NCBI GenBank assembly: GCA_965208855.1
Contig: OZ242359.1
Span: 966,237-1,030,236, forward strand
Direction: 5' to 3'
DNA from: Candidatus Azotimanducaceae bacterium
Lineage (GTDB): Bacteria > Pseudomonadota > Gammaproteobacteria > Pseudomonadales > Azotimanducaceae
Length of the DNA: 64,000 nt
Program-made: the position numbers and the translations under genes
Notes under the pieces: generated by a model
The model's database searches: none
The model's input: only the letters and a program-made list of their open reading frames with translations
Told to the model about the DNA's origin: nothing
Part shown: positions 8,119 to 56,171 of the stretch, in pieces
Numbering within the stretch: position 1 is the first letter of the stretch
Layout: every line of letters starts with the position of its first letter

Positions 8119-8676
8119 TTGAACACTCACGCCCCCGTCCCGCTTTCATTTGAAACGGAAAGATTCCTTATTCGCCGATACAGGGAAGCGGACGCAGACC
8201 TTCTCTATGCAGCAGCCATCGCTTCGATTCCCGAGGTGTTTGAATTCCTGCCCTGGTGTCACCCGGATTACACCAGGCAGGACGCCGCCGATTGGCTGAA
8301 CGCCATAGAAACCAACTGGGAAAAGAACAACACCTACAGCTTTGCCATCTTCGATAAGGATGGCTCTGAGTTTCATGGCGGCTGTGAAATCAACCGTGTT
8401 GATGAACACCCGGTCGGGAACCTCGGCTACTGGGTCAAAACACCCAGCATCGGCAAAGGCGTCGCCACGGAGGCAAGCATCCATCTGGCGCGTTTCGGCT
8501 TGCGGGAACTTGGCCTGCAAAGAATCGAGATCATCATGTCAGTTGAAAACGCCGCCAGCCAAGCTGTCGCGGCATCAATGGGTGCCAAGTTTGAAGGCAT
8601 ACTGCACTCTCGGCTGCTACTTCACGGCAGGCCCCACGATGCCCGCATCTATTCAATCACATGGGACGATATATAA
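8119..8676 (+). CDS. GNAT family N-acetyltransferase (RimJ/RimL-like)
   Basis: 185-aa ORF with a TTG start. It has ETERFLIRRYREADADLLY and the GNAT motif A region GKGVATEA. Confidence 0.8.
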   Translation: MNTHAPVPLSFETERFLIRRYREADADLLYAAAIASIPEVFEFLPWCHPDYTRQDAADWLNAIETNWEKNNTYSFAIFDKDGSEFHGGCEINRVDEHPVGNLGYWVKTPSIGKGVATEASIHLARFGLRELGLQRIEIIMSVENAASQAVAASMGAKFEGILHSRLLLHGRPHDARIYSITWDDI

Positions 8677-8739
8677 CTCCGAGGGGGATATTTTGCTACA
8701 CTGTCACCTCAAACACCGAAACGAACAAAGAGGCTCACT

Positions 8740-10149
8740 ATGAACACTGCAGAACCCACCCGGGAAGATATGCTGACGGTTCTGAACCGCCAGAAAAAGG
8801 CCTACCTCGCCGATGGAGAGGTTCCCGCCCAGCTACGGATTGACAGGATTGAGCGGGCTATTGACCTTCTCAAGAAGCACGGCGGCAAACTGAATGAAGC
8901 CATGGCCGCAGACTTCGGCCACAGGTCCATGGAGCAGTCGAAGATGACCGATATAGACGGCTCCATCGGCCCCCTCGAACACGCCAGGAAAAATGTTCGC
9001 CGCTGGATGCGGCCCGAAAAACGAAAGGTCATGTTCCCTCTGGGCCTGCTTGGCGCCAAAGGCAAGGTTGAATATCAGCCTCTCGGCGTTGTCGGCTGCA
9101 TCAGCCCGTGGAATTTTCCGGTGCAACTGACCTTCAGCCCTCTTGCCGGGATTTTTGCCGCCGGCAATCGCACCATGATCAAACCGTCAGAGTTCACCGC
9201 CCAGACCTCGGCGTTGATGAAGGAAATCTTTGCGGAAGCATACGACGAAGATGAAGTGGCGGTATTTACCGGCGGCCCGGATGTCGGCGGCGCCTTCTCA
9301 AGGCTGCACTTCGATCACCTGTTGTTCACCGGCGCAACTTCCGTTGCAAAACATGTGATGAAAGCGGCGGCGGAGAACCTTGTTCCCGTTACACTTGAAC
9401 TGGGGGGTAAGTCCCCGGTAATCATTGGCCGCTCTGCCGACCTGTCTCTCGCCGCCACCAATATCATGGCGGGCAAGACTATGAACGCGGGCCAGATATG
9501 CCTCGCACCGGACTATGTATTCCTGCCGGAAGAAAGCCGCGACGAATTTGTCGCGGCCGCCGGCGAAGCGGTTGCCACAATGTTTCCGAACATCAAGGAC
9601 AACCCGGATTACACCTCTATCATCAACGAGCGCCATCATGACCGGCTGAACGGTTATCTGGATGACGCCAGGGAGAAGGGAGCAGACATCGTGGAATTCA
9701 ATCCCGCGAACGAGGATTTTTCACAGCAGGAGCATCACAGGATTCCCCCCACCATCATTCTCGACCCAACAGACGACATGAAGGTGATGCAGGATGAAAT
9801 CTTCGGCCCTCTGCTGCCCGTCAAGCAATACAAAGACGTGGATGAAACCATTAACTATGTTAATCAACATGACCGCCCCCTTGGCCTTTACTATTTCGGC
9901 AAGGATGGCAAGGAAGAACGCAAGGTACTGACCCATACGACATCCGGCGGGGTGACCGTGAACGATGTCATCATGCATGTGGCGCAGGAAGACATGCCTT
10001 TCGGCGGCGTCGGCCCCAGCGGCATGGGCTCATATCACGGTCACGACGGCTTCAGAAATTTCAGCCACGCCAAGACTGTGTACAGCCAGTCGAAAATGGT
10101 GTCAAAGCTGGCGGCGTCCATGCGGCCTCCTTACAAGAAGGCGTCATAG
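8740..10149 (+). CDS. NAD(P)-dependent aldehyde dehydrogenase (coniferyl-aldehyde dehydrogenase-like)
   Basis: 469-aa ORF with ELGGKSP, the catalytic Cys context GQICLAPDY, and EIFGPLLP. Confidence 0.85.
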   Translation: MNTAEPTREDMLTVLNRQKKAYLADGEVPAQLRIDRIERAIDLLKKHGGKLNEAMAADFGHRSMEQSKMTDIDGSIGPLEHARKNVRRWMRPEKRKVMFPLGLLGAKGKVEYQPLGVVGCISPWNFPVQLTFSPLAGIFAAGNRTMIKPSEFTAQTSALMKEIFAEAYDEDEVAVFTGGPDVGGAFSRLHFDHLLFTGATSVAKHVMKAAAENLVPVTLELGGKSPVIIGRSADLSLAATNIMAGKTMNAGQICLAPDYVFLPEESRDEFVAAAGEAVATMFPNIKDNPDYTSIINERHHDRLNGYLDDAREKGADIVEFNPANEDFSQQEHHRIPPTIILDPTDDMKVMQDEIFGPLLPVKQYKDVDETINYVNQHDRPLGLYYFGKDGKEERKVLTHTTSGGVTVNDVIMHVAQEDMPFGGVGPSGMGSYHGHDGFRNFSHAKTVYSQSKMVSKLAASMRPPYKKAS

Positions 10150-17352: not shown

Positions 17353-18900
17353 TCACAGTTTCGCCTCTATCAGCGAAGGCCCCTCCGCGGCAAAACTCTG
17401 TTGCAAAGCCGCCGTAAATTCCTCCGCGCTGGCAACGGCTTGGCCCGGGACCCCCATACCAGCCGCCAGTTTAACATAGTCAATGGCCGGTCGAGACAGG
17501 TCAAACAGGTCCGCCGCCCTTTCGCCCACCTCATTGACGCCCAGCCTCAGATACTCGGTCTCCAGTATCCCGTACTTACTATTATTGAATATCACCGTGG
17601 TCACGTTCAGCCCTTCACGCGCCTGAGTCCAAAAGGCCTGATTGGTGTACATGAAGGCGCCATCGCCGAGCAGCGCGAGTACCGGCCTTTCCGGGCAGGC
17701 CACGGCGGCACCAACGGCAACCGGCCCGCCCTGACCAATGGCACCGCCTGTCAGATTGAGCCAGGTATTTGGCCTGCTGGACTGAACCGGCGCGAAAGCT
17801 GCGCCACCACCACCGGAATCACCACAAATAATGGCATTTTCCGGCAGAAGCGCGGCAATGGAAGTGGCGATGGAAGCAGTGGAAAGCTTACCGGCGGGTA
17901 ACTCCGCCTGCCGGTAATCACGCACAGCATAATCGCCGGATGCAACGCCCATCAAATCCGCCACGGCTTCAAGCGCCGCTATTGTATCCTCCCCTGGCCC
18001 GGAAAGCCTGATAACCTCGCAATCGTCCGGCGTCAGAGAACTCGGCGTGTCGGGATACGCAAAGAAACTGACCGGCGCATTCGCACCGGCGAGTATTATC
18101 TTCTGCACGCCTTTCAACATCCCCATCACCTGCTCCGGGAAATACAACATACGCTCCGTGGCGGGCGTACCCGCACCCCCATCGACACGGGCGGGGAAGG
18201 TGGCCAGGCAAACCCGGCAGCCCGTTTTTGCAGCAACACGACCTGCCGCCCTTCTCGCCTCAAGAGACAGGCCATCCCTGTCGAGCAGAAGCAGCGAGCC
18301 ACCATCGAGTGCATCAGCAACCGCCGTAATAACCTTGTCTTCAACCTGGGTCGGCCCGGCTACGGCCAATGGCCCTGCGACATCAGTGGCCGCCTGCCAA
18401 CAGGCATCCGCCGGAACAATCAGGGTCGCCACCTGCCCCCCGGAGCCCACTGCCGGCGTCATGGCCGCCTGTAATGCCAGCATCCCGTCACCCGCAAGGC
18501 TGCCCGCCGTGGAATCACTTTTTATCCAACAGGAAACATTTTTTGCGAGCGTCTCAATATCGGACGTCAGGAGCGCATCATAGGCGATATGGTAAAGCGG
18601 ATGATTGCCGACGAGATTGATGACGGGCGTGGAGGCGCGCCTGGCGTTATGCAGATTTGCAATGCCATTGCCGAGGCCGGGGCCAAGATGCAGGAGCGTT
18701 GTCGCCGGCGACCCTTTCATCCGGCCATAACCATCAGCGGCACCGGTACAGACACCTTCAAACAAAGAGAGTACGCCGCGCATTTCCGGGACGGCATCAA
18801 TGGCCTGCACGAGATGCATCTCCGATGTCCCCGGGTTGGCAAAACATACGTCAACACCCGCCGCCGTCAGCGACCGGAGCAGACTCTCGGCTCCATTCAT
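17353..18900 (-). CDS. thiamine-pyrophosphate enzyme of the acetolactate-synthase large-subunit family
   Basis: 515-aa ORF with N-terminal GVDVCFANPGTSEMH and the C-terminal TPP motif GDGAFMYTNQAFWT...NN. Confidence 0.8.
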   Translation of the reverse strand: MNGAESLLRSLTAAGVDVCFANPGTSEMHLVQAIDAVPEMRGVLSLFEGVCTGAADGYGRMKGSPATTLLHLGPGLGNGIANLHNARRASTPVINLVGNHPLYHIAYDALLTSDIETLAKNVSCWIKSDSTAGSLAGDGMLALQAAMTPAVGSGGQVATLIVPADACWQAATDVAGPLAVAGPTQVEDKVITAVADALDGGSLLLLDRDGLSLEARRAAGRVAAKTGCRVCLATFPARVDGGAGTPATERMLYFPEQVMGMLKGVQKIILAGANAPVSFFAYPDTPSSLTPDDCEVIRLSGPGEDTIAALEAVADLMGVASGDYAVRDYRQAELPAGKLSTASIATSIAALLPENAIICGDSGGGGAAFAPVQSSRPNTWLNLTGGAIGQGGPVAVGAAVACPERPVLALLGDGAFMYTNQAFWTQAREGLNVTTVIFNNSKYGILETEYLRLGVNEVGERAADLFDLSRPAIDYVKLAAGMGVPGQAVASAEEFTAALQQSFAAEGPSLIEAKL

Positions 18901-18984
18901 GGCTAGTGCCCCTTTGCATTGAAAGAAAACGCCATCATAACGGTAAGAGAATGGTTTATCATGCGGCGATGCATCCCCCGCGGT

Positions 18985-19435
18985 CCTTCCCGCCGAAGGC
19001 GGGGATCCAGTTCTTTTGTCGTCATTCTCGGGCGTAGCCCGGGAATCCAGAGTGGCGGCGTAGCCGCCATGCCGTTTACTGTCATCCCAGGCGATGGGGG
19101 GTTGTTCCCATCGCCGACAGTGTTTTCAGGCGTAGCCCGGGGATCCAGAGTGTTTTCTCCCGTCATTCTCGCCGAATCCAGCCGTACCGCCTTCGGCGGG
19201 ACGCCTGGGTTCGGGGGGAATCCAGGCACGGCGAAGCCGCGTATTAATAAGTCCGGCGTAGCTGGACACTTTGTTTATGGCGGCTCCGCCGCCATGCCGT
19301 TTACTGTCATCCCAGGCGATGGGGTTGCTCCCATCGCCGACAGTGTTTCCCGCCGAGGCCGAAGACCCACCCACTCCGTCATTCTCGGGCGTAGCCCGGG
19401 AATCCAGAGTGGCGGCGTAGCCGCCATGCCGTTTG
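18985..19435. repeat. REP-like mosaic cluster (modules A, B, C in mixed orientation)
   Basis: Two module-A hairpins lie near 19087-19125 and 19310-19350. There are several GGCGGCGTAGCCGCC and GGGAATCCAGAG units. Confidence 0.9.
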
Positions 19436-19454
19436 CTGAGGCTGTGGCAGTGGC

Positions 19455-19482
19455 TTGACAAGCATGTAAAGTATGGGAGAAT
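19455..19482 (+). promoter_or_regulatory. candidate sigma70 promoter (TTGACA, 16-nt spacer, TGgGAGAAT extended -10)
   Basis: TTGACA lies at 19455-19460. A TGG at 19474-19476 immediately precedes GAGAAT at 19477-19482. Confidence 0.4.
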
Positions 19483-19488
19483 ACGCCT

Positions 19489-19556
19489 ACCGCCCCGCTG
19501 GCATCCTTCACAGGACCCACGGACCGACAGCCGCCACTAACGCGGCTGTTTTTTTA
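19489..19556 (+). ncRNA. candidate small RNA of about 65 nt (unknown family)
   Basis: It is bounded by the promoter above and a strong intrinsic terminator. There is no plus-strand ORF between or upstream. It lies exactly at the GC-rich to AT-rich transition. Confidence 0.35.
19527..19555 (+). terminator. rho-independent terminator
   Basis: An 8-bp perfect stem pairs ACAGCCGC (19527-19534) with GCGGCTGT (19542-19549). The loop is 7 nt and the stem is followed by a run of T residues to 19555. Confidence 0.7.
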
Positions 19557-19620
19557 TGGCTTTGTATTTCTCCGTATCCTGATTCCTGCCTGATATCCCA
19601 TAGCAGTTGAAAACATCGTT

Positions 19621-19797
19621 TCAAACATCCTTTCCAGGCAATGGCCTATCCTTGCGAATTTTACGTTGCCAGGCAGCAGGGTCTTTAATATGCGAGAACA
19701 AGTTTTTGGACTCTACTTCCTGCATGAGTAGAGCAAGCCTTGTACCACTAGGCTCTTCCTTTGGCAGTTTCTTTTTGTCTTTAGTCATTTTTTTCAT
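19621..19797 (-). CDS. small hypothetical protein (58 aa, basic)
   Basis: This is my own translation, below the ORF-track cutoff: MKKMTKDKKKLPKEEPSGTRLALLMQEVESKNLFSHIKDPAAWQRKIRKDRPLPGKDV. It is AT-rich and no family is recognised. Confidence 0.3.
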   Translation of the reverse strand: MKKMTKDKKKLPKEEPSGTRLALLMQEVESKNLFSHIKDPAAWQRKIRKDRPLPGKDV

Positions 19798-19948
19798 ATT
19801 ACTGAGTTGTTTGCCGAATTGGCTTATGAGTGTATCGTTTTTATTGAAAGATTAATGCAGCAATTTCAAAGACTCGGCAAGGCAAGATACACAATCCACC
19901 ACTGAGTAGCTGCTAAGGGCTACCACCTTTGTATTTCTCCAGGCTCCG

Positions 19949-20018
19949 TCAATCCCAGGCGATGGGGGGTTGTTCCCATCGCCGACGGTTCCTCCCGCCG
20001 AAGGCGGGAATCCAGAGG
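19949..20018. repeat. single REP unit (module A hairpin plus CCCGCCGAAGGCGGGAATCCAGAG)
   Basis: Read directly. It is embedded in AT-rich island DNA. Confidence 0.85.
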
Positions 20019-20140
20019 AATAAACAGCACTACCTTACCAGCCTCGTCTAGCCCGCTAGCGACTCTTTGCTATTGGGGGAAAAGGCTTCTTTCAATACCG
20101 CTTGCATCAGTTGTTTGGAATGGGTTTGGCTGGTCATTTT

Positions 20141-20512
20141 TTAATCGATATACACAAAAGATTGAGGTGCCTGTTTTATATTGAAATCTTGTAATTCTTT
20201 GTGTTTCTCATATTTTTTTGGGCTTTTAACCTTGATTGCATGTCCAATATCTCGTCCGCTGAAATACTCATCATAAAAATCTTTATCAACTCCCGCATGC
20301 TCCATAGTTTGCTTCCATAAGTCTGAGATGTCTGAAGATATAATATCCTCTACTTTAAATTCACCAATAACCTTACTTATCGGGCTTGACGCATAAACAA
20401 CTACTTTTTCTACAGAACGAACACGGAAAATAACCTTTCTAAACTCATAATGCTTTTTACCTGAAAATATTAAATTTGCATATTTTGGTTTAATCGATAA
20501 TAAAACCTTCAT
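20141..20512 (-). CDS. stand-alone ASCH-domain (PUA-like) protein
   Basis: 123-aa ORF. MKVLLSIKPKYANLIFSGKKHYEFRK...VVVYASSPISKVIGEF...PQSFVYI matches my recollection of COG4933-type ASCH proteins. It overlaps the upstream gene by 23 nt. Confidence 0.75.
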   Translation of the reverse strand: MKVLLSIKPKYANLIFSGKKHYEFRKVIFRVRSVEKVVVYASSPISKVIGEFKVEDIISSDISDLWKQTMEHAGVDKDFYDEYFSGRDIGHAIKVKSPKKYEKHKELQDFNIKQAPQSFVYID

Positions 20513-22004
20513 CTGCTTCTGACTCCCGTAATATTAATTCAAATTGTTCTTTGGTAATTGGTTCAAATCCTCTTGGGGCGCTATCTATATCTTTTATGAC
20601 TGTTAGTTCTATTAATTTGTCTAAATTTAATCTTTTAGGGAAAAAATATAAGTACAGAAATTTAACAACAAACGGTCTGTTTTGAGGGTCACGGTCCCAG
20701 TGTTTCAAAAGCTCTTCATCGGAAAATACACTGCGTTTTTGACATAAGTTAATAAATTCCTCTTGGGTTTTGATGTCTATAAAAACATTATCAACAACAC
20801 CAATAGTTGTTATAACACTTATGTGACGCCCACCAGTTCGATAAAACAAAATAATATCGCCTTTGTTTATATTTTTCTTCCAAGATCTAGAAATATAAAC
20901 CTTTTGTATTGCATTTCTATGAGGTTTATCATCGATAAAATTTTCAGGGTTTTCATTATTTAACATCGAATCTGGCAACAAATCGGTATGGTATTCTGGG
21001 TAAATTGGTACAAGAAAGAATTGTCTATTTTTATCTATAATTGGATGGGTTGATTTTGGATTATCTCTATTTGGTGTTGGGTGAAAATCTTTTATGTATA
21101 CTTGCTCATCGCCCGTGGGTGTATTCTTTATTCCATGATGTGTGAAACCCCAATCTTCTAATAATGCAATAAGAATTTGGTGGTTGTCTGTTTTGTTGAA
21201 AACGGTGACATAAATCTCATCAACATGATTTATTAAGGCATTGTCGAATATAATTTTTAAGAATCTTTCTCCTAGTTTATACCCAGTAGATACGACTTTA
21301 AAAGTTCCAATTTTTAATCTTTTCTTCGGAAGTAATAGCGGTTGTATGTCGTTATAATTTTCTTCCTCTGTTTCAGTTTTTATATATAAAAACGCTACAA
21401 TTTCATCCGCTTGAGATTTGCATACATAAGCATCCTCCTCAGACTTTGAATTAAACCATTTGTCAAATTCTTGATAGTCATTACGGAAAGAATCAAAGAA
21501 AGAATCTTTTATATTTAAATTTCCAAAATGTTTTCTTCGTACTGATAGAGTTTTATAGTCAGACAAACCTGGATTTTCAGCAGTTGATTTTTCTATGAAA
21601 TCATTAATTGAAAATATCTTGTGTTCAATATTTAGCCTTGTTGCTTTCTTATGAATCCCTCTATCTTCGGTGATTAAGTAATCAACTCGGTTTTCAAGAA
21701 CTTCTTTCAATAATGAAGTGTCTATTGCATCATTTTCATTTGTATCAATATCATTTCTTATCGATTGAATTGCATCAGATTCTGGTGCTTCTGTTTTAAG
21801 TAAATTGTAGTTTTGAATTTTGGTTTCTATTGTTTTGACAACTTTCTTGTCTTTGTGTTTTTTTATTTCATCTATTGATAATGGCGAAATACATTTTTCA
21901 TAACGTAATTTATCCAGCCAATTGAATAAAATGCCGATATCTTTATTTGTAACCCTACTAGCCTCTCTGTGAAGCAATATATTGGTATCTAGAAGAACTT
22001 TCAT
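20490..22004 (-). CDS. multidomain protein: N-terminal PIN-like nuclease, central GNAT-like acetyltransferase, C-terminal PUA-like (EVE/ASCH-like) module
   Basis: The ORF spans 20490-22025 with a TTG start. I prefer the ATG at 22004 (MKVLLDTNILL), 1 nt after the kinase stop. PIN acidic residues appear in LLDTN, DAIDTSLL and ITEDRG. The GNAT-like stretch is EIVAFLYIK...GYKLGERFLKIIFDNA...LEDWGF. The C-terminal stretch is KGDIILFYRTGG..ISVITTIGVV. The domain calls for the middle and C-terminal parts are by eye. Confidence 0.65.
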   Translation of the reverse strand: MKVLLDTNILLHREASRVTNKDIGILFNWLDKLRYEKCISPLSIDEIKKHKDKKVVKTIETKIQNYNLLKTEAPESDAIQSIRNDIDTNENDAIDTSLLKEVLENRVDYLITEDRGIHKKATRLNIEHKIFSINDFIEKSTAENPGLSDYKTLSVRRKHFGNLNIKDSFFDSFRNDYQEFDKWFNSKSEEDAYVCKSQADEIVAFLYIKTETEEENYNDIQPLLLPKKRLKIGTFKVVSTGYKLGERFLKIIFDNALINHVDEIYVTVFNKTDNHQILIALLEDWGFTHHGIKNTPTGDEQVYIKDFHPTPNRDNPKSTHPIIDKNRQFFLVPIYPEYHTDLLPDSMLNNENPENFIDDKPHRNAIQKVYISRSWKKNINKGDIILFYRTGGRHISVITTIGVVDNVFIDIKTQEEFINLCQKRSVFSDEELLKHWDRDPQNRPFVVKFLYLYFFPKRLNLDKLIELTVIKDIDSAPRGFEPITKEQFELILRESEADEGFIID

Positions 22005-22005
22005 A

Positions 22006-22542
22006 TCATTGCTCCAAATCGCCAATGAAGTTCAAAATTTTATTGGTTCCATTATTTATATCAAGCTCAATATAAGGTATTTGTAAACTAGCCGCTACAC
22101 TTTTTGAATATTTTAATTCTTCATTCTGAAATGACAATAACAAACCACGATCGTATGGTATTCCATCTCGCTTGGCATTTTTTCTTTGTATATTATCAAT
22201 TCTATCATGCAGAGTTATGATTGCTTTAGGCGATATGGAATCAAAAGTTTTTTGTGGTATGCGTTTTATATTACGCTCGGGGTCTAGCAAGCAAAAATGT
22301 CCATCCAGCAAACAGAGTCGAGTGTTATCGACATGATTATCAATCGCTGTTATTAAACTATTCTGATTTCCTTCAATATCTACGACTGACTTGTTGTCTT
22401 TGTTGATTGAGTTTGAGTTCAACATACCAATAAGGTTGCTGGCAGAATAATAATTCGCATCAACATCCACCAAAATTTTATCGCATAGCGTCGTTTTTCC
22501 TACACCATGAATACCACCGATAAATATTATATTTCTAGTCAC
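22006..22542 (-). CDS. small P-loop NTPase / nucleotide-(or RNA-)kinase-like protein
   Basis: 178-aa ORF with a GTG start and Walker A GGIHGVGKTT. A candidate Walker B-like hydrophobic strand ending in Asp is LCLLDGH. The size fits the adenylate-kinase-like fold. Confidence 0.65.
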   Translation of the reverse strand: MTRNIIFIGGIHGVGKTTLCDKILVDVDANYYSASNLIGMLNSNSINKDNKSVVDIEGNQNSLITAIDNHVDNTRLCLLDGHFCLLDPERNIKRIPQKTFDSISPKAIITLHDRIDNIQRKNAKRDGIPYDRGLLLSFQNEELKYSKSVAASLQIPYIELDINNGTNKILNFIGDLEQ

Positions 22543-22612: not shown

Positions 22613-23887
22613 TCACTGCTGTCCCGCTAACGGTTTAATAAAGGAGGCCAAGCTTTCCCTTAATTGATACAATAAGTTTCGACAACACATTGTTTCAAAA
22701 AGGAAAAACTGGCCATGGCACATTGTAATACGATTCTTTCACAAATACTAAAACTAATACCAAAACATGAATTTGAGATCCTTGCAAAACAGCATCATTC
22801 AGGCCGATCTTTCCGAACGGCTTCCCGCTGGTCACAGTTTGTTACCATGACCATTGGGCAATTAGCGGGACGAAATAGTTTGCGTGATATCGTTGAAAAT
22901 ATATCGGCACAAACTCACAGGCTTTACCATTTGGGCAGTGCAAAGCTTTCTCGATCTAACTTGTCTCGCATTAATGAAGATAAACCCTACGCTCTTTATG
23001 AAGCCTTATTTGGAAAGCTATTGAATCGCTGCCAAGCGACGACTCCGGAACATGGTTTTCGTTTTAATAACCCACTGTATTCGCTTGATGCATCCACGAT
23101 CGATCTCTGTTTATCCACTTTTCCGTGGGCTGATTTCCGTTCAACAAAAGGCGCTGTTAAACTTCACGTAGGCTTGAATCATGCTGGATATATGCCAGAG
23201 TTTGTCACGATTACTGAAGGTAAAACCAGTGACATTGAAGTGGGTCGAACCTTAAGTTTCCCTAAAGGCAGTATCGTTGCCATAGATCGCGGTTATAATG
23301 ATTATTCCTGGTTTAACTCACTGACAAACAAGGGTATTTTCTTTGTTACTCGGCTGAAGTCCAATGCCAAAATACGCACAGTCCGTCGTCATGCCATAGC
23401 GTCTGGAAAAGGTTTGACCAGCGACCAAACTATTGAGTTTACAGGCACTCAAACAGCAAAAAAGTGTCCTGTTCAGCTGCGCCGTATTGGATATAAGGAT
23501 GCTGAAACAGGTAAGCACTACGTGTTTTTAACCAACAATTTCAAGTTGTCGGCTAAAACCATTGCTGATATTTATAAGTCGCGCTGGCAGGTTGAATTAT
23601 TCTTCAAATGGATTAAGCAAAACCTTAAAATCAAGTCTTTTGTCGGCACCAGTAAAAATGCGGTTATGACACAAATCTGGATTGCGTTATGTGTTTACTT
23701 ACTCGTTGTGTTTCTTAAATTCCAGTCGAAGTTAACCAAAACGTTGCAACAAATGTTACGTATCTTGCAGCTTAATTTATTTGAAAAACGCGATCTGATA
23801 GCCTTGATTAGGGGCGACCCGATTAAAGATGTTAACTTTGATCCCTGTCAGATGATTTTAATGTGAAAGTTAACGGGACAGCAGTGA
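22613..23887 (+). mobile_element. IS4-family insertion sequence (1275 bp)
   Basis: The terminal inverted repeats are TCACTGCTGTCCCGCTAAC (22613-22631) and the reverse complement of 23869-23887, TCACTGCTGTCCCGTTAAC, matching at 18 of 19 positions. There is a single transposase ORF. I found no clear target-site duplication. Confidence 0.85.
22715..23866 (+). CDS. IS4-family DDE transposase (DUF4372-type N-terminus)
   Basis: 383-aa ORF. The N-terminus KHEFEILAKQHHSGRSFRTASRWSQFVTMTIGQLAGRNSLRDI is typical of this IS4 subgroup. DRGY and YKSRWQVELFFKWIKQ motifs are present. Confidence 0.9.
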   Translation: MAHCNTILSQILKLIPKHEFEILAKQHHSGRSFRTASRWSQFVTMTIGQLAGRNSLRDIVENISAQTHRLYHLGSAKLSRSNLSRINEDKPYALYEALFGKLLNRCQATTPEHGFRFNNPLYSLDASTIDLCLSTFPWADFRSTKGAVKLHVGLNHAGYMPEFVTITEGKTSDIEVGRTLSFPKGSIVAIDRGYNDYSWFNSLTNKGIFFVTRLKSNAKIRTVRRHAIASGKGLTSDQTIEFTGTQTAKKCPVQLRRIGYKDAETGKHYVFLTNNFKLSAKTIADIYKSRWQVELFFKWIKQNLKIKSFVGTSKNAVMTQIWIALCVYLLVVFLKFQSKLTKTLQQMLRILQLNLFEKRDLIALIRGDPIKDVNFDPCQMILM

Positions 23888-24154: not shown

Positions 24155-25216
24155 TTAACGCCATAAAAATGCCCAAATAATTTTTATAACTCCTAACAAT
24201 CCTGACCATACTATGAGCCCTATCCACTTCATTCCTTCACTCAAGTCTTGCTCAATTCCTTTTCCAACCAACTGTCCAAAGGCCAGCCTAAATTGTGCTT
24301 TCGTATGTCCCTGCTTCGCAGCTTTCCTATACCAATACATTGCTTCACGCTCATCCTTTATAACTCCTTCACCATTAAAGTATGCAACACCTAAATCATA
24401 TTGCGCTTTCATGTGTCCCTGCCTTGCAGCTTTACTATACCAACCCACTCCCATATCCTTGTCTTGTTCAACACCCTTACCATTAAAATATGCAACACCT
24501 AAATCATATTGCGCTAAAGGGAACCCGTTTTCGGCAGCTTTGCGATACCATCGATTTCCTTCACGCTTGTCCTGCGCAACGCCTTCTCCATTGAGATATG
24601 CTAAACCTATACCGTATTGTGCTAACGCAATCCCCTGCTCCGCTGCCTTGCGAGTCCAGCGCACTCCTTCACGCTTGTCCTGTTCAACGCCCTCGCCATT
24701 AAAATATGCAAGACCTAAATTATATTGCGCTGTGGCAAGTCCCTGCTCCGCCGCCTTCCGGGTCCAACGTACTGCCTCACTTTTATCCTGCGAAACACCT
24801 TCTCCAGTGAAGTATGTAACACCTAACCAATATTGTGCGAACGCAACCCCCTGTTCAGCAGCTTTACGCCACCAATAGGTTGCTTCATGCTTATCTATCT
24901 CAACACCATACCCATAAAAGTACATAAACCCTAAACTTTGTTGCGCTAACGGCGTTCCCTCTTCCGCATCTATATAAAGCTGACGCAATCCCTCACCCTT
25001 AGCGTATCTAATACTTTTTAGATATTTTTCAATATCTGAAATAGATGACGATGTAAGCTTTGCAATTTCTTCTTCCGTCCATGATTTTGTTAATGCTATC
25101 TCTTCTTTTGTGTACTCATCACCTTTCATGGTTTCCACAATAAATAAAATCGTTGGCATAATAATCACGATTAATGCCAACAATGCTCCAATTACTTGAG
25201 CAATATTTTTAAACAT
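24155..25216 (-). CDS. Sel1-like repeat (SLR) protein with N-terminal membrane anchor
   Basis: 353-aa ORF with an N-terminal hydrophobic helix and about 7 tandem 36-aa units of the form AEQGxAxAQYxLGxAYxNGEGVxQDKxEGVRWxRKAA. Confidence 0.85.
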   Translation of the reverse strand: MFKNIAQVIGALLALIVIIMPTILFIVETMKGDEYTKEEIALTKSWTEEEIAKLTSSSISDIEKYLKSIRYAKGEGLRQLYIDAEEGTPLAQQSLGFMYFYGYGVEIDKHEATYWWRKAAEQGVAFAQYWLGVTYFTGEGVSQDKSEAVRWTRKAAEQGLATAQYNLGLAYFNGEGVEQDKREGVRWTRKAAEQGIALAQYGIGLAYLNGEGVAQDKREGNRWYRKAAENGFPLAQYDLGVAYFNGKGVEQDKDMGVGWYSKAARQGHMKAQYDLGVAYFNGEGVIKDEREAMYWYRKAAKQGHTKAQFRLAFGQLVGKGIEQDLSEGMKWIGLIVWSGLLGVIKIIWAFLWR

Positions 25217-25353: not shown

Positions 25354-26145
25354 TTACTCCACAAGATTTTCAATCGCTTCCAACCGTCTCTCTGTTTCTT
25401 TCCGTGCATCGCGGATTTCATTTTGTGACAGAGACCAATTATCGGGAAAATTATTTGCCGCTAATTTATTGCCACTGGCCTTGGAAATGGAAAGCCAGAT
25501 ATAGGCTTCATATTCATCGGTGATAACGCCATCCCCCACTAAGTATGAAACACCTAACCTAAATTGCGCAGCCGCATCTCCCTGCTCCGCAGCTTTGCGA
25601 GTCCAGCGCACTGCCTCACGCTTGTCCTGCGCAACGCCCTCGCCTTTATTGTATGCAAAACTTAACCTATATTGCGCTTTCGCATCTCCCTGCTCCGCTG
25701 CCTTGCGAGTCCAGCGCACTCCTTCACGCTTGTCCTGTTCAACGCCCTCGCCATTAAAATATGCATAACCTAAATTATATTGCGCTTCTGCAACTCCCTG
25801 CTCCGCAGCTTTTCGAATCCAGCGCACTGCCTCACGCTTGTCCTGCACAACGCCCTCATCATAATAATATACACCTAAATTATATTGCGCTTTAGCAAAT
25901 CCCTGTTCCGCCGCTTTGCGCCACCAACGCACTCCCTCACGCTTGTCCTGTGCAACATCCTCGCCATGATAGTAGGCATTACCTAAATTATATTGCGCTT
26001 CTGCAACTCCCTGCTCCGCCGCTATTTCAAATTGCGCTATTTCTTCCTCTGTCCACACAACATGTTTTGTCGTTTGCGAAACAAACACCACGGACACCAC
26101 AGACACCAACAAAACCCCAGCTACCAAAACAATTTTTTTAAACAT
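25354..26145 (-). CDS. Sel1-like repeat (SLR) protein with N-terminal membrane anchor
   Basis: The ORF spans 25354-26193. I prefer the ATG at 26145 (MFKKIVLVAG), which has a GAGGAG RBS 8 nt upstream. It has 5 SLR units. Confidence 0.85.
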   Translation of the reverse strand: MFKKIVLVAGVLLVSVVSVVFVSQTTKHVVWTEEEIAQFEIAAEQGVAEAQYNLGNAYYHGEDVAQDKREGVRWWRKAAEQGFAKAQYNLGVYYYDEGVVQDKREAVRWIRKAAEQGVAEAQYNLGYAYFNGEGVEQDKREGVRWTRKAAEQGDAKAQYRLSFAYNKGEGVAQDKREAVRWTRKAAEQGDAAAQFRLGVSYLVGDGVITDEYEAYIWLSISKASGNKLAANNFPDNWSLSQNEIRDARKETERRLEAIENLVE

Positions 26146-26230
26146 TGTGTTACTCCTCTTTGTTTGTTGGATATTCAAGCCTGAAACCCTCACGAGGTAG
26201 GTCTACATAGTAGCGTTTTTCTACTTTAAC

Positions 26231-26480
26231 TAAGTGCGTGCCCCGCGTCACTCCCATTGCAGTTTCGCTTCGCGGAACCGCAACTCTGGACCCCCGGGCT
26301 ACGCCTGGGAAACACTGTCGGCGATGGGAACAACCCCCCATCGCCTGGAATGACGGGAAGGAACTGGATCCCCGCCGGCGGCGAGGACGGTAAGGGGCAA
26401 GCCGGGCACATTGTTAATGGCGGCTTACGCCGCCACTCTGGATTCCCGGGCTACGCCCGACAAGAATGACGGGAAAAAGC
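26231..26480. repeat. REP-like mosaic cluster (modules C, A, B)
   Basis: It contains TCACTCCCATTGC...GCGGAACCGCAACTCTGGA, one module-A hairpin (about 26300-26345), and GGCGGCTTACGCCGCCACTCTGGATTCCCGGGCTACGCC. Confidence 0.9.
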
Positions 26481-26583
26481 AAACCCGAGGATGGCGGCAA
26501 GCGGCAAGCCCGCCTCTGCGCCACTAGAGCGGAATGGACGGAAAGCGAGCGGGCCGTGTGCCCTAGATGGGCCTGTTGTCCGC

Positions 26584-26808
26584 CTAGTGATAGGTGAACA
26601 CAAGGGACAGCTTGGTTTCATTCGTCAGGTTCCGGTCTGCGGCATGAAACAACTTGCTATGAAAGAAGAGCGCGTCTCCCTGAATGAGCAGGTTGTCGCT
26701 GCTCGGGTCACCATAAACCCCTTTCCCCGCAGTCTCCAAAATGCGGTATGGCACTTGTTCCGATGCCTTGATGTCGTCCTTTCGGGTGAGCCAGTTCAGC
26801 GTCGGCAT
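26584..26808 (-). pseudogene. chimeric remnant: N-terminus of an N6/N4 DNA methyltransferase (type III Mod-like) fused to a degraded duplicate of the phyH 3' end
   Basis: MPTLNWLTRKDDIKASEQVPYRILE...DNLLIQGD is the canonical start of Mod-type methylases. From QGD onward, ALFFHSKLFHAADRNLTNETKLSLVFTYH* parallels the end of the intact gene at 28466-29236. Nucleotide similarity continues down to about 26520. Confidence 0.7.
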
Positions 26809-26811
26809 GAT

Positions 26812-28101
26812 TCAGGTTTCTTGTTCGTTATCGGGTTTTGGTTCTTCAAGCAGCTCAGGTTTGCGTTGTTTAATCTCCGCTTCTATTTCGTCGGGTAGTT
26901 TTGCTTGATATAAGGTTTTTGCTGTCAATAATTGTTCAGTGGTTAAATTGTTAGCGCCTGTTAAATCTGCTCCTTGTAAATTAGCATTCTGTAAATCGGC
27001 CCCCTCGAAATCAGCATTCTGTAAATCAACCTCCTCGAAATAAGTGTCTTGTAATTTAGCACCGATGAAATTGGCATCCTGTAAATTGGCTCTTTCGAAA
27101 TGAGATTTTCGCAATACAGCCTTATTGAAAATGGCCCTATATAAATTAGCGTTGAGGAAATAAGCACTTTGTAAATTGGCTTCCCCGAAATTAGCTCTCT
27201 GCAATTTAGCGCTAACGAAAGTCGCGCTATTAAACTTAGCATTGTGGAAATTAGCATCCTGTAAATCGGTCTCATCCAAAATAGCTCTCTGCAATTCAGC
27301 GCCATAGAAAGTGGTGCTATTTAAATTAGCATTGCGGAAATTAGCATCCTGTAAAACGGCTCCCCCGAAGTTAGCTCCCTGCAATTTAACGCTAATGAAA
27401 AGGGCGCTATTTAAATAAGCATAGGCGAAACAAGCACTCTGTAAACCGGCTCCCTCGAAATTAGCGCCTTGTAAATTAGCTTTGAGGAAAACAGCATGCT
27501 GTAAGTTAGTATTCCCTAAAGTAGTCGCTTTTAGCTCTGAATGCTCTAAATTAGCTGTAAATTCTGTATAGATGTCACATCCTGGAGAGTCAATGAACAA
27601 CAATTTCAATATGCTTTGGATTTCAATGTTTGGTTGAGAAAACATTTCAGAATTTTCCTCTCCTATTTGTATCATTCTCGGCTTATATCCATCCTGCGTT
27701 GTTGTGTCTCTGATATGTCCGCATAGTATTTCCAATATTCGCTCCCGGTATTCTTTCTCATCTTGCGCAATATGATGCAAGGCATAGATGCCGCCCAAAC
27801 GGACGGATGGGGATTCATGCCCCAGGTGCTCAATGGCGTTCTTGAAGCGTTCGGCAATGTTGCCTTTTTCGGTTGAGTCTGCCGTTTTTTGCATTGCCTT
27901 AGCAGTTTCGTCTGCCGCATTAGCGCGTTGGCTGGAAGCCATGACTTGCCACAGTAACAATCCACCGCCGGTCAAATAGGCAACGAATTTTGCAAGTTCC
28001 GGGTCATATCGGAACGAAACAATAAGCCCCACTATTCCAACAACCCCTACGACAATGAGTATGCCCTTCCAGGCACCAATCAATTGTTCCTTAAAGTCCA
28101 T
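26812..28101 (-). CDS. membrane-anchored pentapeptide-repeat protein
   Basis: The ORF spans 26812-28161 with a TTG start. ATG 28101 (MDFKEQLIG) is preferred, but the start is uncertain. It has two N-terminal TM helices, a helical linker, then about 35 A(D/N)LxG-type pentapeptide repeats (ANLQGANFEGAGLQSA...). Confidence 0.8.
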   Translation of the reverse strand: MDFKEQLIGAWKGILIVVGVVGIVGLIVSFRYDPELAKFVAYLTGGGLLLWQVMASSQRANAADETAKAMQKTADSTEKGNIAERFKNAIEHLGHESPSVRLGGIYALHHIAQDEKEYRERILEILCGHIRDTTTQDGYKPRMIQIGEENSEMFSQPNIEIQSILKLLFIDSPGCDIYTEFTANLEHSELKATTLGNTNLQHAVFLKANLQGANFEGAGLQSACFAYAYLNSALFISVKLQGANFGGAVLQDANFRNANLNSTTFYGAELQRAILDETDLQDANFHNAKFNSATFVSAKLQRANFGEANLQSAYFLNANLYRAIFNKAVLRKSHFERANLQDANFIGAKLQDTYFEEVDLQNADFEGADLQNANLQGADLTGANNLTTEQLLTAKTLYQAKLPDEIEAEIKQRKPELLEEPKPDNEQET

Positions 28102-28212
28102 AATCACTAATGACCTACTTTCATATGCTGCATATAGATTGAGAAGGGGATTATGTAGCAAAGTGCCTACATAGTGTTTGATAGAATGGCACTAAATGCC
28201 CTTCCCTTATTC

Positions 28213-28460
28213 CGTCATTCTCGCCGAGGCCGAAAGCCGCAGGCGGGAATCCAGGCGCGGCGTAGCCGCGTATAATAACGAGTCCGGCGTAGCCGGGACA
28301 TTGTTAATGGCGGCTTGCGCCGCCATTAATTAAGCAGCGTGCCCCCCGTCAACTCCCATTGCGCTCCCGCTTCGCGGAACCGCAACTCTGGATTCCCCCC
28401 GAACCCAGTCGTCCCGCCGAAGGCGGTACGGCTGGCTGCGGCGAGAATGACGGGAAAAAG
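28213..28460. repeat. REP-like mosaic cluster (modules C and B variants)
   Basis: It contains CGTCATTCTCGCCGAGGCCGAAAGCCGCAGGCGGGAATCCAGG, GGCGGCTTGCGCCGCC, and AACTCCCATTGCGCTCCCGCTTCGCGGAACCGCAACTCTGGATTCCC. Confidence 0.9.
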
Positions 28461-28465
28461 CACCA

Positions 28466-29236
28466 CTAGAGCGGGATGGACGGAAAGCGAGCGGACCGGG
28501 TGCCCTGTATGGGCCTGTTGTCCGCCTGGTGGTAGGTGAACACCAGCGACAGCTTGGTTTCATTCGTCAGGTTCCGGCCAGCGGCATGAAACAGTCTGCT
28601 ATGAAAGAAGAGCACGTCTCCCTGCTTTAACTCTACGGCACTTGATTGTTCGATCATGGTCTTGTTCTCCGGCAAGTCAGGCCGCAGGAAGAGGGCCGCA
28701 TCAAACCGCCCCGGTTCCGGTTCCAACCTATGCGAGCCGGGTATCACTCGCAGGCAGCCATTGCGTTTATTTTCATCGCCCAGCGCCAGCCAAACGCTAA
28801 CCAGGTCTTCGCGGTCAAAGGACCAGTAACGGTTATCCTGATGCCACAGGGTCACGCTACTGTAACCCGGTGTCTTGGTCATAATGCAGTTATGGTGGCA
28901 TTGAGACAGCATCATCTGGCCGGGTTCTGCAAACAGCCCGTGCAGCACATCCCGGACCTCGGCGCAGGTGGCCCATTGGCGGATGGCTTGGTCACGGGCA
29001 TATGCCTGTAACAATCTTCGCGAAGTCTTTGCTTCAGGAGAGAGGGGGTCCAACGGGGCGCCCGGGTAATGCACATCAATTTCGTATTCGACCGGCGCAA
29101 TCAGTTGCGCCAGGTGGCTGGATGAAATGGCGGCAAGCGCCTCGCACTTTTCCCGGCTAACGAGTGAAGAAACCGCCAGATAACCATCCCGCCGAAACGC
29201 AGCCTTGTCTATATCTGTCAGTCGCGCTGGTTTCAC
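28466..29236 (-). CDS. phytanoyl-CoA dioxygenase (PhyH) family Fe(II)/2-oxoglutarate oxygenase
   Basis: 256-aa ORF with the HQD iron-binding triad element (LWHQDNRYW) and the distal FFHSRLFHAAGRN. Confidence 0.85.
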   Translation of the reverse strand: MKPARLTDIDKAAFRRDGYLAVSSLVSREKCEALAAISSSHLAQLIAPVEYEIDVHYPGAPLDPLSPEAKTSRRLLQAYARDQAIRQWATCAEVRDVLHGLFAEPGQMMLSQCHHNCIMTKTPGYSSVTLWHQDNRYWSFDREDLVSVWLALGDENKRNGCLRVIPGSHRLEPEPGRFDAALFLRPDLPENKTMIEQSSAVELKQGDVLFFHSRLFHAAGRNLTNETKLSLVFTYHQADNRPIQGTRSARFPSIPL

Positions 29237-55646: not shown

Positions 55647-55719
55647 AACGGTCTCTTAGTGTTCAAATGGACCCCCGCAGTTTTAATCTTATCAAGTTTT
55701 CTTGATAATTCCCCAAATA

Positions 55720-56130: not shown

Positions 56131-56171
56131 AGGACCATCTATCAACTACTTAAATACGGCATACAAACTCT

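Follow-up and report, generated by a model that had tools for sequence, protein, structure and literature searches.

The minus strand of the 64,000-nt stretch of DNA analysed here (the window) holds a cassette of three intact and coupled open reading frames, g1, g2 and g3 (Table 1). The TGAtATG junction and the 23-nt overlap that the original prediction had described are both present. The mechanical ORF of g2 begins at a TTG (22025..20490), but translation probably starts at the ATG at 22004-22002, as do the homologs and the PADLOC profile. The overlap of g2 and g3 implies translational coupling, and a Shine-Dalgarno-like GGAG is found 7 nt 5' of the g2 start codon and 10 nt 5' of the g3 start codon. 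Among related loci, the 23-nt overlap is kept in 45 of the 63 called pairs, while the commonest form of the g1/g2 junction is a 4-nt overlap (ATGA), seen in 26/52. Every family-invariant residue of the three proteins is retained in the window copy.

Table 1. Positions in the window of the cassette genes, the g2 domains, the gene junctions and the adjoining insertion sequence.
Feature	Position	Strand	Remark
g1	22006..22542	(-)	178 aa, GTG start
g2	20490..22004	(-)	504 aa from ATG (likely start); PIN-GNAT-EVE fusion; PADLOC PDC-M11A
g2 PIN domain, aa 1-145	21570..22004	(-)	acidic quartet D6, E46, D92/D95, D114
g2 GNAT-fold domain, aa 155-335	21000..21542	(-)	invariant loop G241..G245-E246-R247 after strand RLKIGTFKV
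g2 inter-domain segment, aa 336-363	20916..20999	(-)	PEYHTDLLPDS...PHRNAIQK
g2 EVE (PUA-like) domain, aa 364-504	20493..20915	(-)	hallmark GDIILFYR (GDxxxFYR)
g3	20141..20512	(-)	123-aa ASCH protein; PADLOC PDC-M11B; ZmASCH subfamily
g1 stop/g2 start junction TGAtATG	22002..22008	(-)	read from sequence
g2/g3 overlap, 23 nt	20490..20512	(-)	read from sequence
IS4/IS5-type insertion sequence	22613..23887	(+)	19-nt terminal inverted repeats; flanks the cassette, context and not component

The cassette sits in a decayed low-GC island adjoining an insertion sequence (IS). The GC content is 0.30-0.37 at 20-23 kb versus about 0.57 elsewhere in the window, and the bin at 21-22 kb is the lowest, in agreement with the earlier description of this DNA as the most AT-rich of the window. 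The IS, whose transposase (22715-23866) matches DDE_Tnp_1 (1e-30) and DUF4372, is bounded by inverted repeats at 22613-22631 and 23869-23887, and no obvious target-site duplication was found at its ends. As predicted, 70 nt separate its left repeat from the start codon of g1, and these are all the upstream DNA left before the gene. Expression of the window copy is uncertain, since the IS cuts the native upstream region to this length. A promoter scan upstream of g1 gave a score not above the shuffled expectation. Inside the IS end, a promoter-like site reads outward. The other flanking genes encode Sel1-repeat and pentapeptide-repeat proteins and a fragment of a type III methyltransferase (Mod). 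The fragment corresponds to the truncated DNA methylase that had been placed about 4 kb away: an ORF at 26808..26584, which is about 4.1 kb away from g1, resembles over its first 47 aa the N-terminus of a type III methyltransferase (E=3.3e-11). The surroundings of the cassette in the window contain neither a type I restriction-modification (RM) operon nor an intact RM partner. In the same island, a PhyH 3' end is present in duplicate.

The g1 protein, predicted to be a kinase-like P-loop protein, matches AAA_17 (4e-13) and AAA_18 (5.6e-7) in Pfam, the latter of which we take to be the Fap7/AK6 family. It carries the Walker A motif GGIHGVGKTT (nt 22489-22518; G10-x4-G15-K16-T17) and the family-invariant motif LLDGHFCLL. 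In a profile search of the PDB it matches the adenylate kinases AK5 and AK1 and UMP-CMP kinase, and its AF2 model (pLDDT 93) resembles archaeal adenylate kinases in Foldseek with TM of 0.72-0.79 (OdinAK 7owe, 1.3e-11, TM 0.78). On this modelled structure, g1 is a P-loop NTPase with an adenylate/NMP-kinase fold, which bears out the prediction and refines the published term 'AAA+ ATPase'. Its kinase activity is uncertain, because most of the conserved arginines with which the NMP site and LID of true adenylate kinases carry out phosphoryl transfer are missing: R125 is the one invariant Arg (D126 is almost invariant), and the DGFPR-like motif reads DGHFC, with no Arg.

The g2 family is large, with more than 5,152 homologs in 2,336 clusters at 50% identity. 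The protein is 54-77% identical (best segment) to relatives in 80 species from many bacterial phyla and some archaea, and a close relative in another genome is 89% identical. The division into PIN, GNAT and PUA-like parts, which had been proposed from motifs, was upheld by profiles, invariant acidic residues and the AF2 model (pLDDT 79 overall). The N-terminal region matches PIN_3 at 2e-5 and 25.8 bits, 1.2 bits below the Pfam cutoff of 27, and also PIN_12; a PF13470 flag is precomputed on a protein identical to g2. Strands and helices alternate in the AF2 secondary structure of this region, and no PIN structure is among the best 50 Foldseek matches listed. The PIN domain is likely an active nuclease because its acidic residues D6, E46, D92, D95 and D114 are invariant in 81/81 sequences. 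The characterised members of VapC-type PIN families are RNases.

The central domain of g2 has, in its model, a GNAT fold, and its acetyltransferase activity is putative. Foldseek matches include Naa60 (5icw, 2.4e-5), NatA/NatC, SpeG and others in the range of 2e-5 to 5e-4, a fold similarity with E about 1e-5 at only 12-20% identity. The protein matches PHROG 13728 'acetyltransferase' (3.7e-22), and no GNAT match was found for it in Pfam. The C-terminal domain resembles in Foldseek the EVE domain of THYN1 (5j3e, 5e-5) and ZmASCH (5y6c, 2.8e-4), its Pfam EVE match (2.7e-4) lies below threshold, and Y388 and R389 of its hallmark are invariant. The family of g2 falls in the GNAT-fused EVE cluster of Bell et al. 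(PMC7641849). The most conserved stretch of g2 is the segment between the GNAT and EVE domains, with 13/28 invariant positions and a mean majority fraction of 0.85 vs 0.73-0.76 in the three domains. This segment is also the lowest-confidence part of the model (pLDDT <50 at 337-363), and its motif is retained in GevT, a PIN-less phage homolog. This observation goes beyond the published accounts of PIN-GNAT-EVE proteins that were consulted.

As predicted, g3 is a stand-alone ASCH protein, with a Pfam ASCH match above threshold (1.8e-5). Its profile reaches ZmASCH in the PDB (5GUS/5GUQ, 1.6e-20) and also lists TTHA0113, and YqfB (1TE7) is absent from that search at E<=10. Conversely, ZmASCH itself matches PDC-M11B at 3e-29. 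The cleft residues Tyr47, Ser128, Gln127, Tyr90 and Arg32 of ZmASCH correspond to Y40, S118, Q117, Y83 and R25 of g3, all invariant in 31 sequences. The two proteins differ at Lys53, which is off by one position, and at Trp15, which is Lys8 in g3; a further difference is that ZmASCH is a stand-alone gene, whose upstream neighbour is unrelated to g2. The close homology of g3 to ZmASCH in sequence is a link that goes beyond the published accounts of PIN-GNAT-EVE consulted. The original prediction had looked instead to YqfB and an eraser role, which the motif G18-x-K20-x-x-E23-x-R25 (GxKxxExR) weakens: the invariant E23 stands where YqfB presumably carries its catalytic Thr (GxKxxTxR), and g3 shows no profile relation to 1TE7 at E<=10. 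The ZmASCH protein is reported to bind nucleic acids, ssRNA among them, and to cleave ssRNA, not DNA, in vitro, an RNase activity that was weak and needed a large excess of protein to be observed (Kim et al. 2017, PMC5615036). Its cleft has no conserved acidic or nucleophilic centre, according to its authors (PMC5615036).

ASCH domains of this type also occur in fusions. The NCBIfam family PRK12279 joins a g3-like ASCH to ribosomal protein L22 (2.4e-19), one PIN-GNAT-EVE protein (P0269) bears a g3-type ASCH at its C-terminus (hhalign 99.9%), and many g2 relatives of about 620 aa have an N-terminal ASCH domain. The fusions of ASCH to g2-type proteins are an addition to the published accounts consulted.

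The co-occurrence of the trio, suggested earlier as a check, was examined in 80 related loci, each from a different species and archaea included. A g3 gene adjoins the g2 homolog in 78 of them and a g1 gene in 53, g1 being missing from a third, and no other neighbour is conserved across the 80 loci. Overall, the cassette genes are found side by side in hundreds of species of bacteria and archaea. In two loci (L001 and L002) they are embedded in a type I RM operon with the order hsdM-hsdS-g1-g2-g3-hsdR, at least 6/80 loci lie near HsdM by BLAST, and the neighbours of relatives include N6_Mtase, HsdS, HsdR, HEPN and DUF1016. Homologs of the cassette are found in 16 phage records and 33 plasmid records. 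A PIN-less pair follows cI directly in a lambdoid phage, and 275/5,426 complete genomes of E. coli carry it. The reading as a mobile conflict or toxin-antitoxin-like module, already put forward in the original prediction, fits these changing neighbourhoods, the presence of copies within type I RM operons and the carriage on prophages and plasmids.

On balance, we lean towards a mobile toxin-antitoxin-like or abortive-infection module that acts on modified RNA. In such a module g2 would be the effector. Its EVE domain would dock on a modified base, and the nucleic acid that carries this base would be a universally conserved one, in all probability an RNA (tRNA or rRNA, for example); the docked substrate would be disabled by the PIN nuclease, by GNAT acetylation or by both. 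The g3 protein, made in step with g2 via the overlapping frames, would stay bound to g2 as a subunit that binds nucleic acid, and would restrain or direct it, and g1 would be an optional accessory adenylate-kinase-fold NTPase. In RM-embedded relatives the module may, by analogy with PrrC and EcoprrI, serve as a second line when restriction fails. The analysis shows the gene structure, the domain folds, the invariant PIN residues, the conserved order of the genes and their mobility. We infer the RNA or tRNA target and the writer/reader logic, as the published predictions do, and we also infer toxicity, acetylation and what g3 and g1 do. The leaning towards RNA comes from the likeness of g3 to ZmASCH, which cuts ssRNA and not DNA, from their shared cleft residues and from the L22-ASCH fusion. 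A universal target is suggested because g2 is so conserved across 80 species of many phyla and archaea. That g3 would work with g2 is suggested by the ASCH fusions to PIN-GNAT-EVE proteins at either end, and such fusion in cis speaks against an antitoxin of the classical labile kind. The characterised prokaryotic EVE domains read modified DNA. Against an RNA reading, Bell et al. argue that ASCH binds modified DNA and report HTH-ASCH and HsdS-ASCH fusions (PMC7641849).

These fusions, and the copies that lie within type I RM operons (L001, L002; PMC7641849), are consistent with DNA-directed modification sensing. The EVE and ASCH domains would then read modified DNA bases, be it the hypermodified bases of phages or the methylation marks of RM, while PIN cuts DNA and GNAT acetylates a DNA base, an idea of Iyer et al. 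(2013) as cited by Bell et al. (PMC7641849), or a DNA-bound protein, so that the cassette accompanies type I RM as a type IV-like or epigenetic system. The THYN1 EVE structure matched by the g2 C-terminus is bound to 5mC DNA, and the PUA domain of PUA-Cal-HAD senses m6-dAMP from degraded host DNA (bioRxiv 10.64898/2026.01.15.699771). We consider this reading unlikely. The g2 PIN matches the VapC-type families PIN_3 and PIN_12, in which the members characterised so far are RNases, and the cassette comes without a helicase or translocase. ZmASCH, the closest relative of g3 with a solved structure, cut ssRNA but left DNA uncut, and g2 is very highly conserved across domains of life, in contrast to the EVE domains that serve restriction enzymes as readers and evolve fast (PMC7641849). 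A writer/eraser pair like DarT/DarG, in which GNAT N-acetylates a nucleobase or aminoacyl-tRNA and ASCH is an antitoxin that hydrolyses the mark, would draw on the same two folds. YqfB, an N4-acetylcytidine amidohydrolase with ASCH topology, provides the precedent (EcoSal review, PMC12707154), and the strict co-translation of g2 and g3 and the depositor's label 'GevA antitoxin' on an ASCH partner point the same way. Against it stand Glu23 at the presumed position of the YqfB catalytic Thr, a g3 profile that reaches ZmASCH and, at E<=10, not YqfB, the ZmASCH cleft without a conserved acidic or nucleophilic centre (PMC5615036) and cis ASCH fusions that fit a subunit equally well, and we regard such a pair as quite unlikely.

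The small-subunit rRNA toolkit Nob1/Fap7/Kre33 is mirrored by the set of PIN, adenylate-kinase-like NTPase, GNAT and PUA-like domains, and the cassette might process or acetylate rRNA or tRNA as housekeeping RNA maturation rather than in conflict. The AAA_18 match of g1 (presumably Fap7/AK6), the likeness of g3 to the L22-ASCH family and the strong purifying selection on g2 would suit this role. It is nevertheless highly improbable in view of the patchy distribution with flanks that are not conserved, the low-GC island beside an IS, the embedding in RM operons, the prophage and plasmid carriage and the absence of g1 from a third of loci. For the copy in this genome, it is also conceivable that the IS and rearrangement have cut it off from its RM or mobile context and left a remnant that is no longer expressed. 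An IS end 70 nt before g1 without target-site duplication suggests later rearrangement, the island has decayed, as seen from the Mod fragment and the duplicated PhyH 3' end, and the promoter scan agrees. Such silence is decidedly improbable, given three intact ORFs with all family-invariant residues, the g2 relative at 89% identity in another genome and the promoter-like site reading outward from the IS end.

The module of modified-RNA effector and ASCH partner favoured here can be compared with several known systems. With VapBC, g2 has in common a PIN domain of VapC-like families with a complete acidic site, but unlike VapC this PIN is fused to GNAT and EVE, and in place of the small upstream DNA-binding VapB there is the kinase-fold g1 upstream and the ASCH partner downstream. 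The GNAT toxins TacT/AtaT/ItaT, which acetylate aminoacyl-tRNA, share the GNAT fold and a mobile two-gene context; they have no reader domain, whereas g2 does, their RHH/DUF1778 antitoxin partner is absent from the cassette, and they are not among the best 50 Foldseek matches of g2. The possible writer and partner logic recalls DarT/DarG, a toxin that modifies nucleic acid paired with an enzymatic eraser antitoxin, which also acts in phage defence, by analogy only, as the chemistry and folds differ and the g3 motif gives no support for an eraser role. PrrC/EcoprrI, an anticodon nuclease in a type I RM operon, has no homology to the cassette, but its effector gene lies between hsdS and hsdR as the cassette does in L001 and L002.

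The closest counterparts are already on record, contrary to the original prediction, which had recognised no named defence system and had listed a match to a described one among the outcomes that would refute it. The g2 protein matches PADLOC PDLC04422 (PDC-M11A) at E=5.5e-216 (aa 8-510 of the TTG ORF, profile 1-500 of 501), and g3, which adjoins g2 on the same strand, matches PDLC04425 (PDC-M11B) over its full length at E=1.3e-48. PDC-M11 has no model for a g1-like kinase, and g1 gives only weak P-loop matches; PDC systems are described as candidates (PADLOC). GevT and GevA of lambdoid E. coli phages (GenBank PV340567.1) both match PDC-M11. GevT shares 38% identity with g2 aa 154-503 and GevA 46% with g3, and the pair has the same 23-nt overlap, but GevT lacks the PIN domain, has no kinase gene beside it and lies next to cI in prophage. 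The names 'GevT toxin / GevA antitoxin' come from the depositor's annotation of that 2025 phage record, and a literature search found no experimental paper on any PIN-GNAT-EVE protein or on the GevT/GevA label. Operons of (PIN)-GNAT-EVE, ASCH and AAA_17 were described by Bell, Wolf and Koonin (2020, PMC7641849), who credit Iyer et al. (2013) with first noting PIN-GNAT-EVE operons. The cassette shares with them the fusion architecture, the ASCH partner and the frequent AAA_17 gene, while their tendency to associate with type I RM is seen in its relatives and not in the window. Judged by these matches, the cassette is a typical copy of a catalogued candidate phage-defence or toxin-antitoxin module and not a discovery.

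The three coupled genes of the cassette, g1 (kinase-fold NTPase), g2 (PIN-GNAT-EVE fusion) and g3 (ASCH protein), belong to a family that is already catalogued. In PADLOC, g2 is matched by PDC-M11A (5.5e-216) and g3 by PDC-M11B (1.3e-48), the PDC systems being "phage defence candidates" derived largely from genes within BREX, DISARM and type I RM loci (bioRxiv 10.1101/2024.01.29.577857). The same operon was described by Bell, Wolf and Koonin, with an ASCH gene almost always and an AAA_17 ATPase often, which is exactly the arrangement of this cassette (PMC7641849). The original prediction, that this composition is not a named system, is thereby overturned. In their survey, the PIN form is tied to type I RM and defence islands and the PIN-less form is found in prophages, and none of these modules is characterized (PMC7641849). 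The first description and the idea of DNA-base acetylation are credited there to Iyer et al. 2013 (PMC7641849).

A PIN-less pair from Escherichia phage PhiR47_2 (PV340567.1) is labelled "GevT toxin" and "GevA antitoxin" in GenBank. Both proteins match PDC-M11, and the pair is positioned directly after cI with a 23-nt overlap as in g2/g3; GevT shares 38% identity with g2 aa 154-503, and GevA shares 46% with g3. Of 5,426 complete E. coli genomes, 275 (5%) carry that pair. Literature searches found no publication that accounts for the Gev names, a single inventory line mentioning PDC-M11 and, for GNAT-EVE/ASCH antitoxins, nothing beyond inventories, Bell et al. and unrelated work, with no mechanism reported. 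The cassette is thus typical of its family, which is catalogued but experimentally undescribed in the literature found. The copy in the window is no new kind of system, and its value is that of one more intact example.

The ORF listing and the sequence bear out the three minus-strand ORFs with their two tight junctions. A TTG at 22025 is the mechanical ORF start of g2, but the ATG at 22004 is taken as its start because the homologs and the PADLOC profile begin there. A GGAG motif stands 7 nt upstream of the g2 start codon and 10 nt upstream of that of g3. The cassette indeed lies in the most AT-rich DNA of the window (GC 0.30-0.37 vs about 0.57).

Features of the cassette, its low-GC island and a second low-GC patch
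Feature	Position	Strand	Description
g1	22542..22006	minus	178 aa, GTG start
g2	22004..20490	minus	504 aa, ATG start
g3	20512..20141	minus	123 aa
g1/g2 junction	22008-22002	minus	TGAtATG (sequence)
g2/g3 overlap	20490-20512	minus	23 nt (sequence)
GNAT-EVE inter-domain segment	20916-20999	minus	g2 aa 336-363, PEYHTDLLPDS...PHRNAIQK (conservation)
Lysine-rich ORF	19621-19797	minus	58 aa, no Pfam match; just downstream of cassette, in low-GC DNA
IS4/IS5-type element	22613-23887		1,275 bp; DDE_Tnp_1/DUF4372 transposase; 19-nt terminal inverted repeats 22613-22631 and 23869-23887
Two tandem Sel1-repeat proteins	24155-25216, 25354-26193	minus	N-terminal hydrophobic segments, 108-nt internal periodicity
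Pentapeptide-repeat protein	26812-28161		449 aa; same low-GC island as Sel1-repeat genes
AAA_22/AAA_16 ATPase	54546-55646	minus	
HipA-like kinase	56172-57395	minus	
121-aa gene	57392-57757	minus	immediately upstream of HipA-like kinase, 4-nt overlap

The domain assignments proposed for g2 (PIN, GNAT and a PUA-like fold, here EVE) are supported by sub-threshold Pfam matches, invariant residues and fold matches. The N-terminal part matches PIN_3 just below the Pfam threshold, and its residues D6, E46, D92, D95 and D114 do not vary across 81 sequences. For the middle part, Pfam gives no GNAT match; by fold it resembles many GNAT structures (Naa60 at 2.4e-5, NatA/NatC, SpeG), and it also matches a PHROG acetyltransferase family. 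The C-terminal part has a sub-threshold Pfam EVE match and resembles by fold the EVE domain of THYN1 (5e-5) and also ZmASCH, a solved stand-alone ASCH protein. As the g2 profile matched nothing among PDB sequences even at E<=10, fold comparison alone was informative there, using an AF2 model with a pLDDT of 79. The segment between GNAT and EVE is the most conserved stretch of the protein, with 13 of 28 positions invariant. Despite this conservation, AF2 pLDDT stays below 50 across it; no Pfam model matched it, and phage GevT keeps the motif.

The g3 protein passes the Pfam ASCH threshold, in agreement with its first assignment, and a profile of 31 g3 sequences matches ZmASCH (PDB 5GUS/5GUQ) at 1.6e-20. 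Judged by sequence, the two belong to the same ASCH subfamily. The ZmASCH is a nucleic-acid binder with weak Mg-dependent cleavage of ssRNA and no cleavage of DNA, in which Tyr47, Lys53 and Ser128 were implicated through mutagenesis (PMC5615036). Its Tyr47, Ser128, Gln127, Tyr90 and Arg32 correspond to the invariant g3 residues Y40, S118, Q117, Y83 and R25. An origin of ZmASCH from a GNAT-EVE operon was considered and rejected; its upstream 375-aa neighbour is unlike g2 (hhalign probability 0.2%) and has no PADLOC match, and ZmASCH is a stand-alone gene. Furthermore, g3 matches the C-terminal "unknown domain" of the L22 ribosomal-protein fusion family NCBIfam PRK12279 at 2.4e-19, and therefore an ASCH domain of the g3 subfamily is naturally fused to ribosomal protein L22.

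The reading of g1 as a P-loop kinase-like NTPase is upheld by matches to Pfam AAA_17 and AAA_18, by profile matches and by fold. A profile of 29 homologs matched the adenylate kinases AK5 and AK1 (4e-7 to 1e-5) and UMP-CMP kinases in the PDB, and archaeal adenylate kinases superpose on the full length of the AF2 model (pLDDT 93; OdinAK at 1.3e-11, TM 0.78). The invariant residues include the P-loop and LLDGHFCLL, which resembles the LLDGFPR motif carried by adenylate kinases, and R125 is the only invariant arginine. On the strength of the profile and fold matches, the DGHFC-type motif and the single invariant Arg, we call g1 a predicted adenylate-kinase-fold NTPase with an unproven acceptor.

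Homologs of g2 number more than 5,152 in a 90%-clustered collection, and clustering at 50% identity leaves 2,336 representatives. When a single genome was scanned for each species, at least 592 encoding loci were obtained, archaea included. From these, 80 loci were kept, covering many bacterial phyla and archaeal MAGs with g2 identities of 54-77%; the closest named relative is that of a Candidatus Ruthturnera MAG (77%). The trio does co-occur in these loci: g3 adjoins the g2 homolog in 78 of 80 and g1 in 53 of 80, where g1 mostly lies directly upstream and in three cases downstream. Among 63 g2/g3 pairs, 45 have the 23-nt overlap. When 945 flanking ORFs were clustered all against all, no further conserved neighbour was detected; type I RM subunits, HEPN and DUF1016/YhcG nucleases are among the genes nearby. 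A conserved trio with variable flanks is what characterizes a self-contained mobile cassette. Homologs also occur on 16 phage and 33 plasmid records. In the archaeal Methanothermobacter phage psiM100 (AF301375.1 / NC_002628.3), a PIN-containing g2 homolog at 8233-9549, 31% identical over aa 1-436, sits in the "inserted fragment IFa". Two Hymenobacter loci have a roughly 360-aa gene between the g2 and g3 homologs (L034, 7524-8603; L060, 7524-8645), with no Pfam or PADLOC match.

In several family representatives (P0269, P0290, P0293, P0295 and P0312), an ASCH fusion was noted. In P0269, PIN-GNAT-EVE is followed at the C-terminus by a g3-type ASCH (hhalign 99.9%). Among the top 150 representatives, about 15 have a length near 620 aa and align with the profile only beyond about residue 120; in the three whose N-terminal extensions were tested, the extension is an ASCH of a different type (Pfam ASCH about 1e-9). 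These fusions support a physical and functional partnership of ASCH and effector, and an ASCH fused in cis fits awkwardly with a labile antitoxin.

Upstream of the cassette, the predicted IS end 70 nt from the g1 start codon was recovered, with terminal inverted repeats and a DDE transposase. No target-site duplication is visible at the ends of the element, which suggests that the region was rearranged after insertion. The truncated DNA methylase some 4 kb off proved to be a fragment of 47 aa from the N-terminus of a type III Mod (E=3.3e-11). In ORF 26808..26584, this fragment is fused in frame to the downstream copy of a duplicated PhyH dioxygenase 3' end, a 165-nt direct repeat (26518-26682 and 28460-28624, 90% identical) whose copies flank the pentapeptide-repeat gene on both sides. 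GC-rich REP-like repeats at 18900-20050, 26230-26480 and 28200-28460 bracket the low-GC island segments, for example with inverted 45-nt arms at 19952-19996 and 26307-26351, and give rise to many spurious ORFs. Promoter and terminator scans did not exceed the shuffled expectation. No Rfam family and no tRNA were found in or near the island; nothing points to an RNA antitoxin or to integration at a tRNA. A second lower-GC patch of the window (54546-57757, minus strand) holds a 121-aa gene and a HipA-like kinase that probably form a HipBA-type toxin-antitoxin pair.

Taken as a whole package of effector, ASCH subunit and optional kinase-fold protein, the cassette is somewhat favoured to be a mobile toxin-antitoxin-like or abortive-infection module. 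The reader domain would target the PIN-GNAT-EVE protein to a modified, universally conserved nucleic acid, which the protein would inactivate by cleavage, acetylation or both, with g3 as a co-translated nucleic-acid-binding subunit and g1 as an optional accessory. The target perhaps leans to RNA, a tentative preference based on the PIN of VapC-type families, the action of ZmASCH on ssRNA, the L22-ASCH fusion and the unusually high conservation of g2 between bacteria and archaea. In two loci (L001 and L002), the gene order is hsdM-hsdS-g1-g2-g3-hsdR, and this position between hsdS and hsdR recalls, by analogy only, the effector gene PrrC in EcoprrI.

Among the rivals, a DNA-directed system in which reader, modifier and nuclease work in alliance with RM is rather unlikely. 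A DarTG-like writer/eraser pair is unlikely, being weakened because g3 lacks a YqfB-type motif and its profile shows no similarity to YqfB, the E. coli ASCH amidohydrolase. A housekeeping role in RNA maturation is contradicted by the mobility of the cassette and seems very improbable. As the IS has replaced the upstream region, expression of the window copy is in question, and there is a small chance that it is silent.

In the literature found, we did not see the kinship of g3 and ZmASCH, the ASCH fusions, the adenylate-kinase fold of g1 or the invariant inter-domain motif of g2. The family is large and widespread and, as a whole, an attractive experimental target; its nuclease, acetyltransferase, two modified-base-reader folds and kinase fold could reveal new ways of marking or destroying nucleic acids in phage-host conflict. 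One speculative joint reading, which we consider improbable, sees the cassette as an immune or addiction system that works by acetylating nucleic acids. Here, an EVE-guided GNAT would N-acetylate a conserved modified RNA, or DNA, at a base or an aminoacyl group, and the PIN would cut the marked molecule, while the ASCH subunit would gate or reverse the mark; the adenylate-kinase-like g1 would sense or convert a modified nucleotide as trigger, and the invariant, low-confidence PEYHTxLxPDS...PHRN segment would contribute to a composite active or substrate site. If true, immunity would rest here on a new chemistry, with ADP-ribosylation in DarTG as its analogue.
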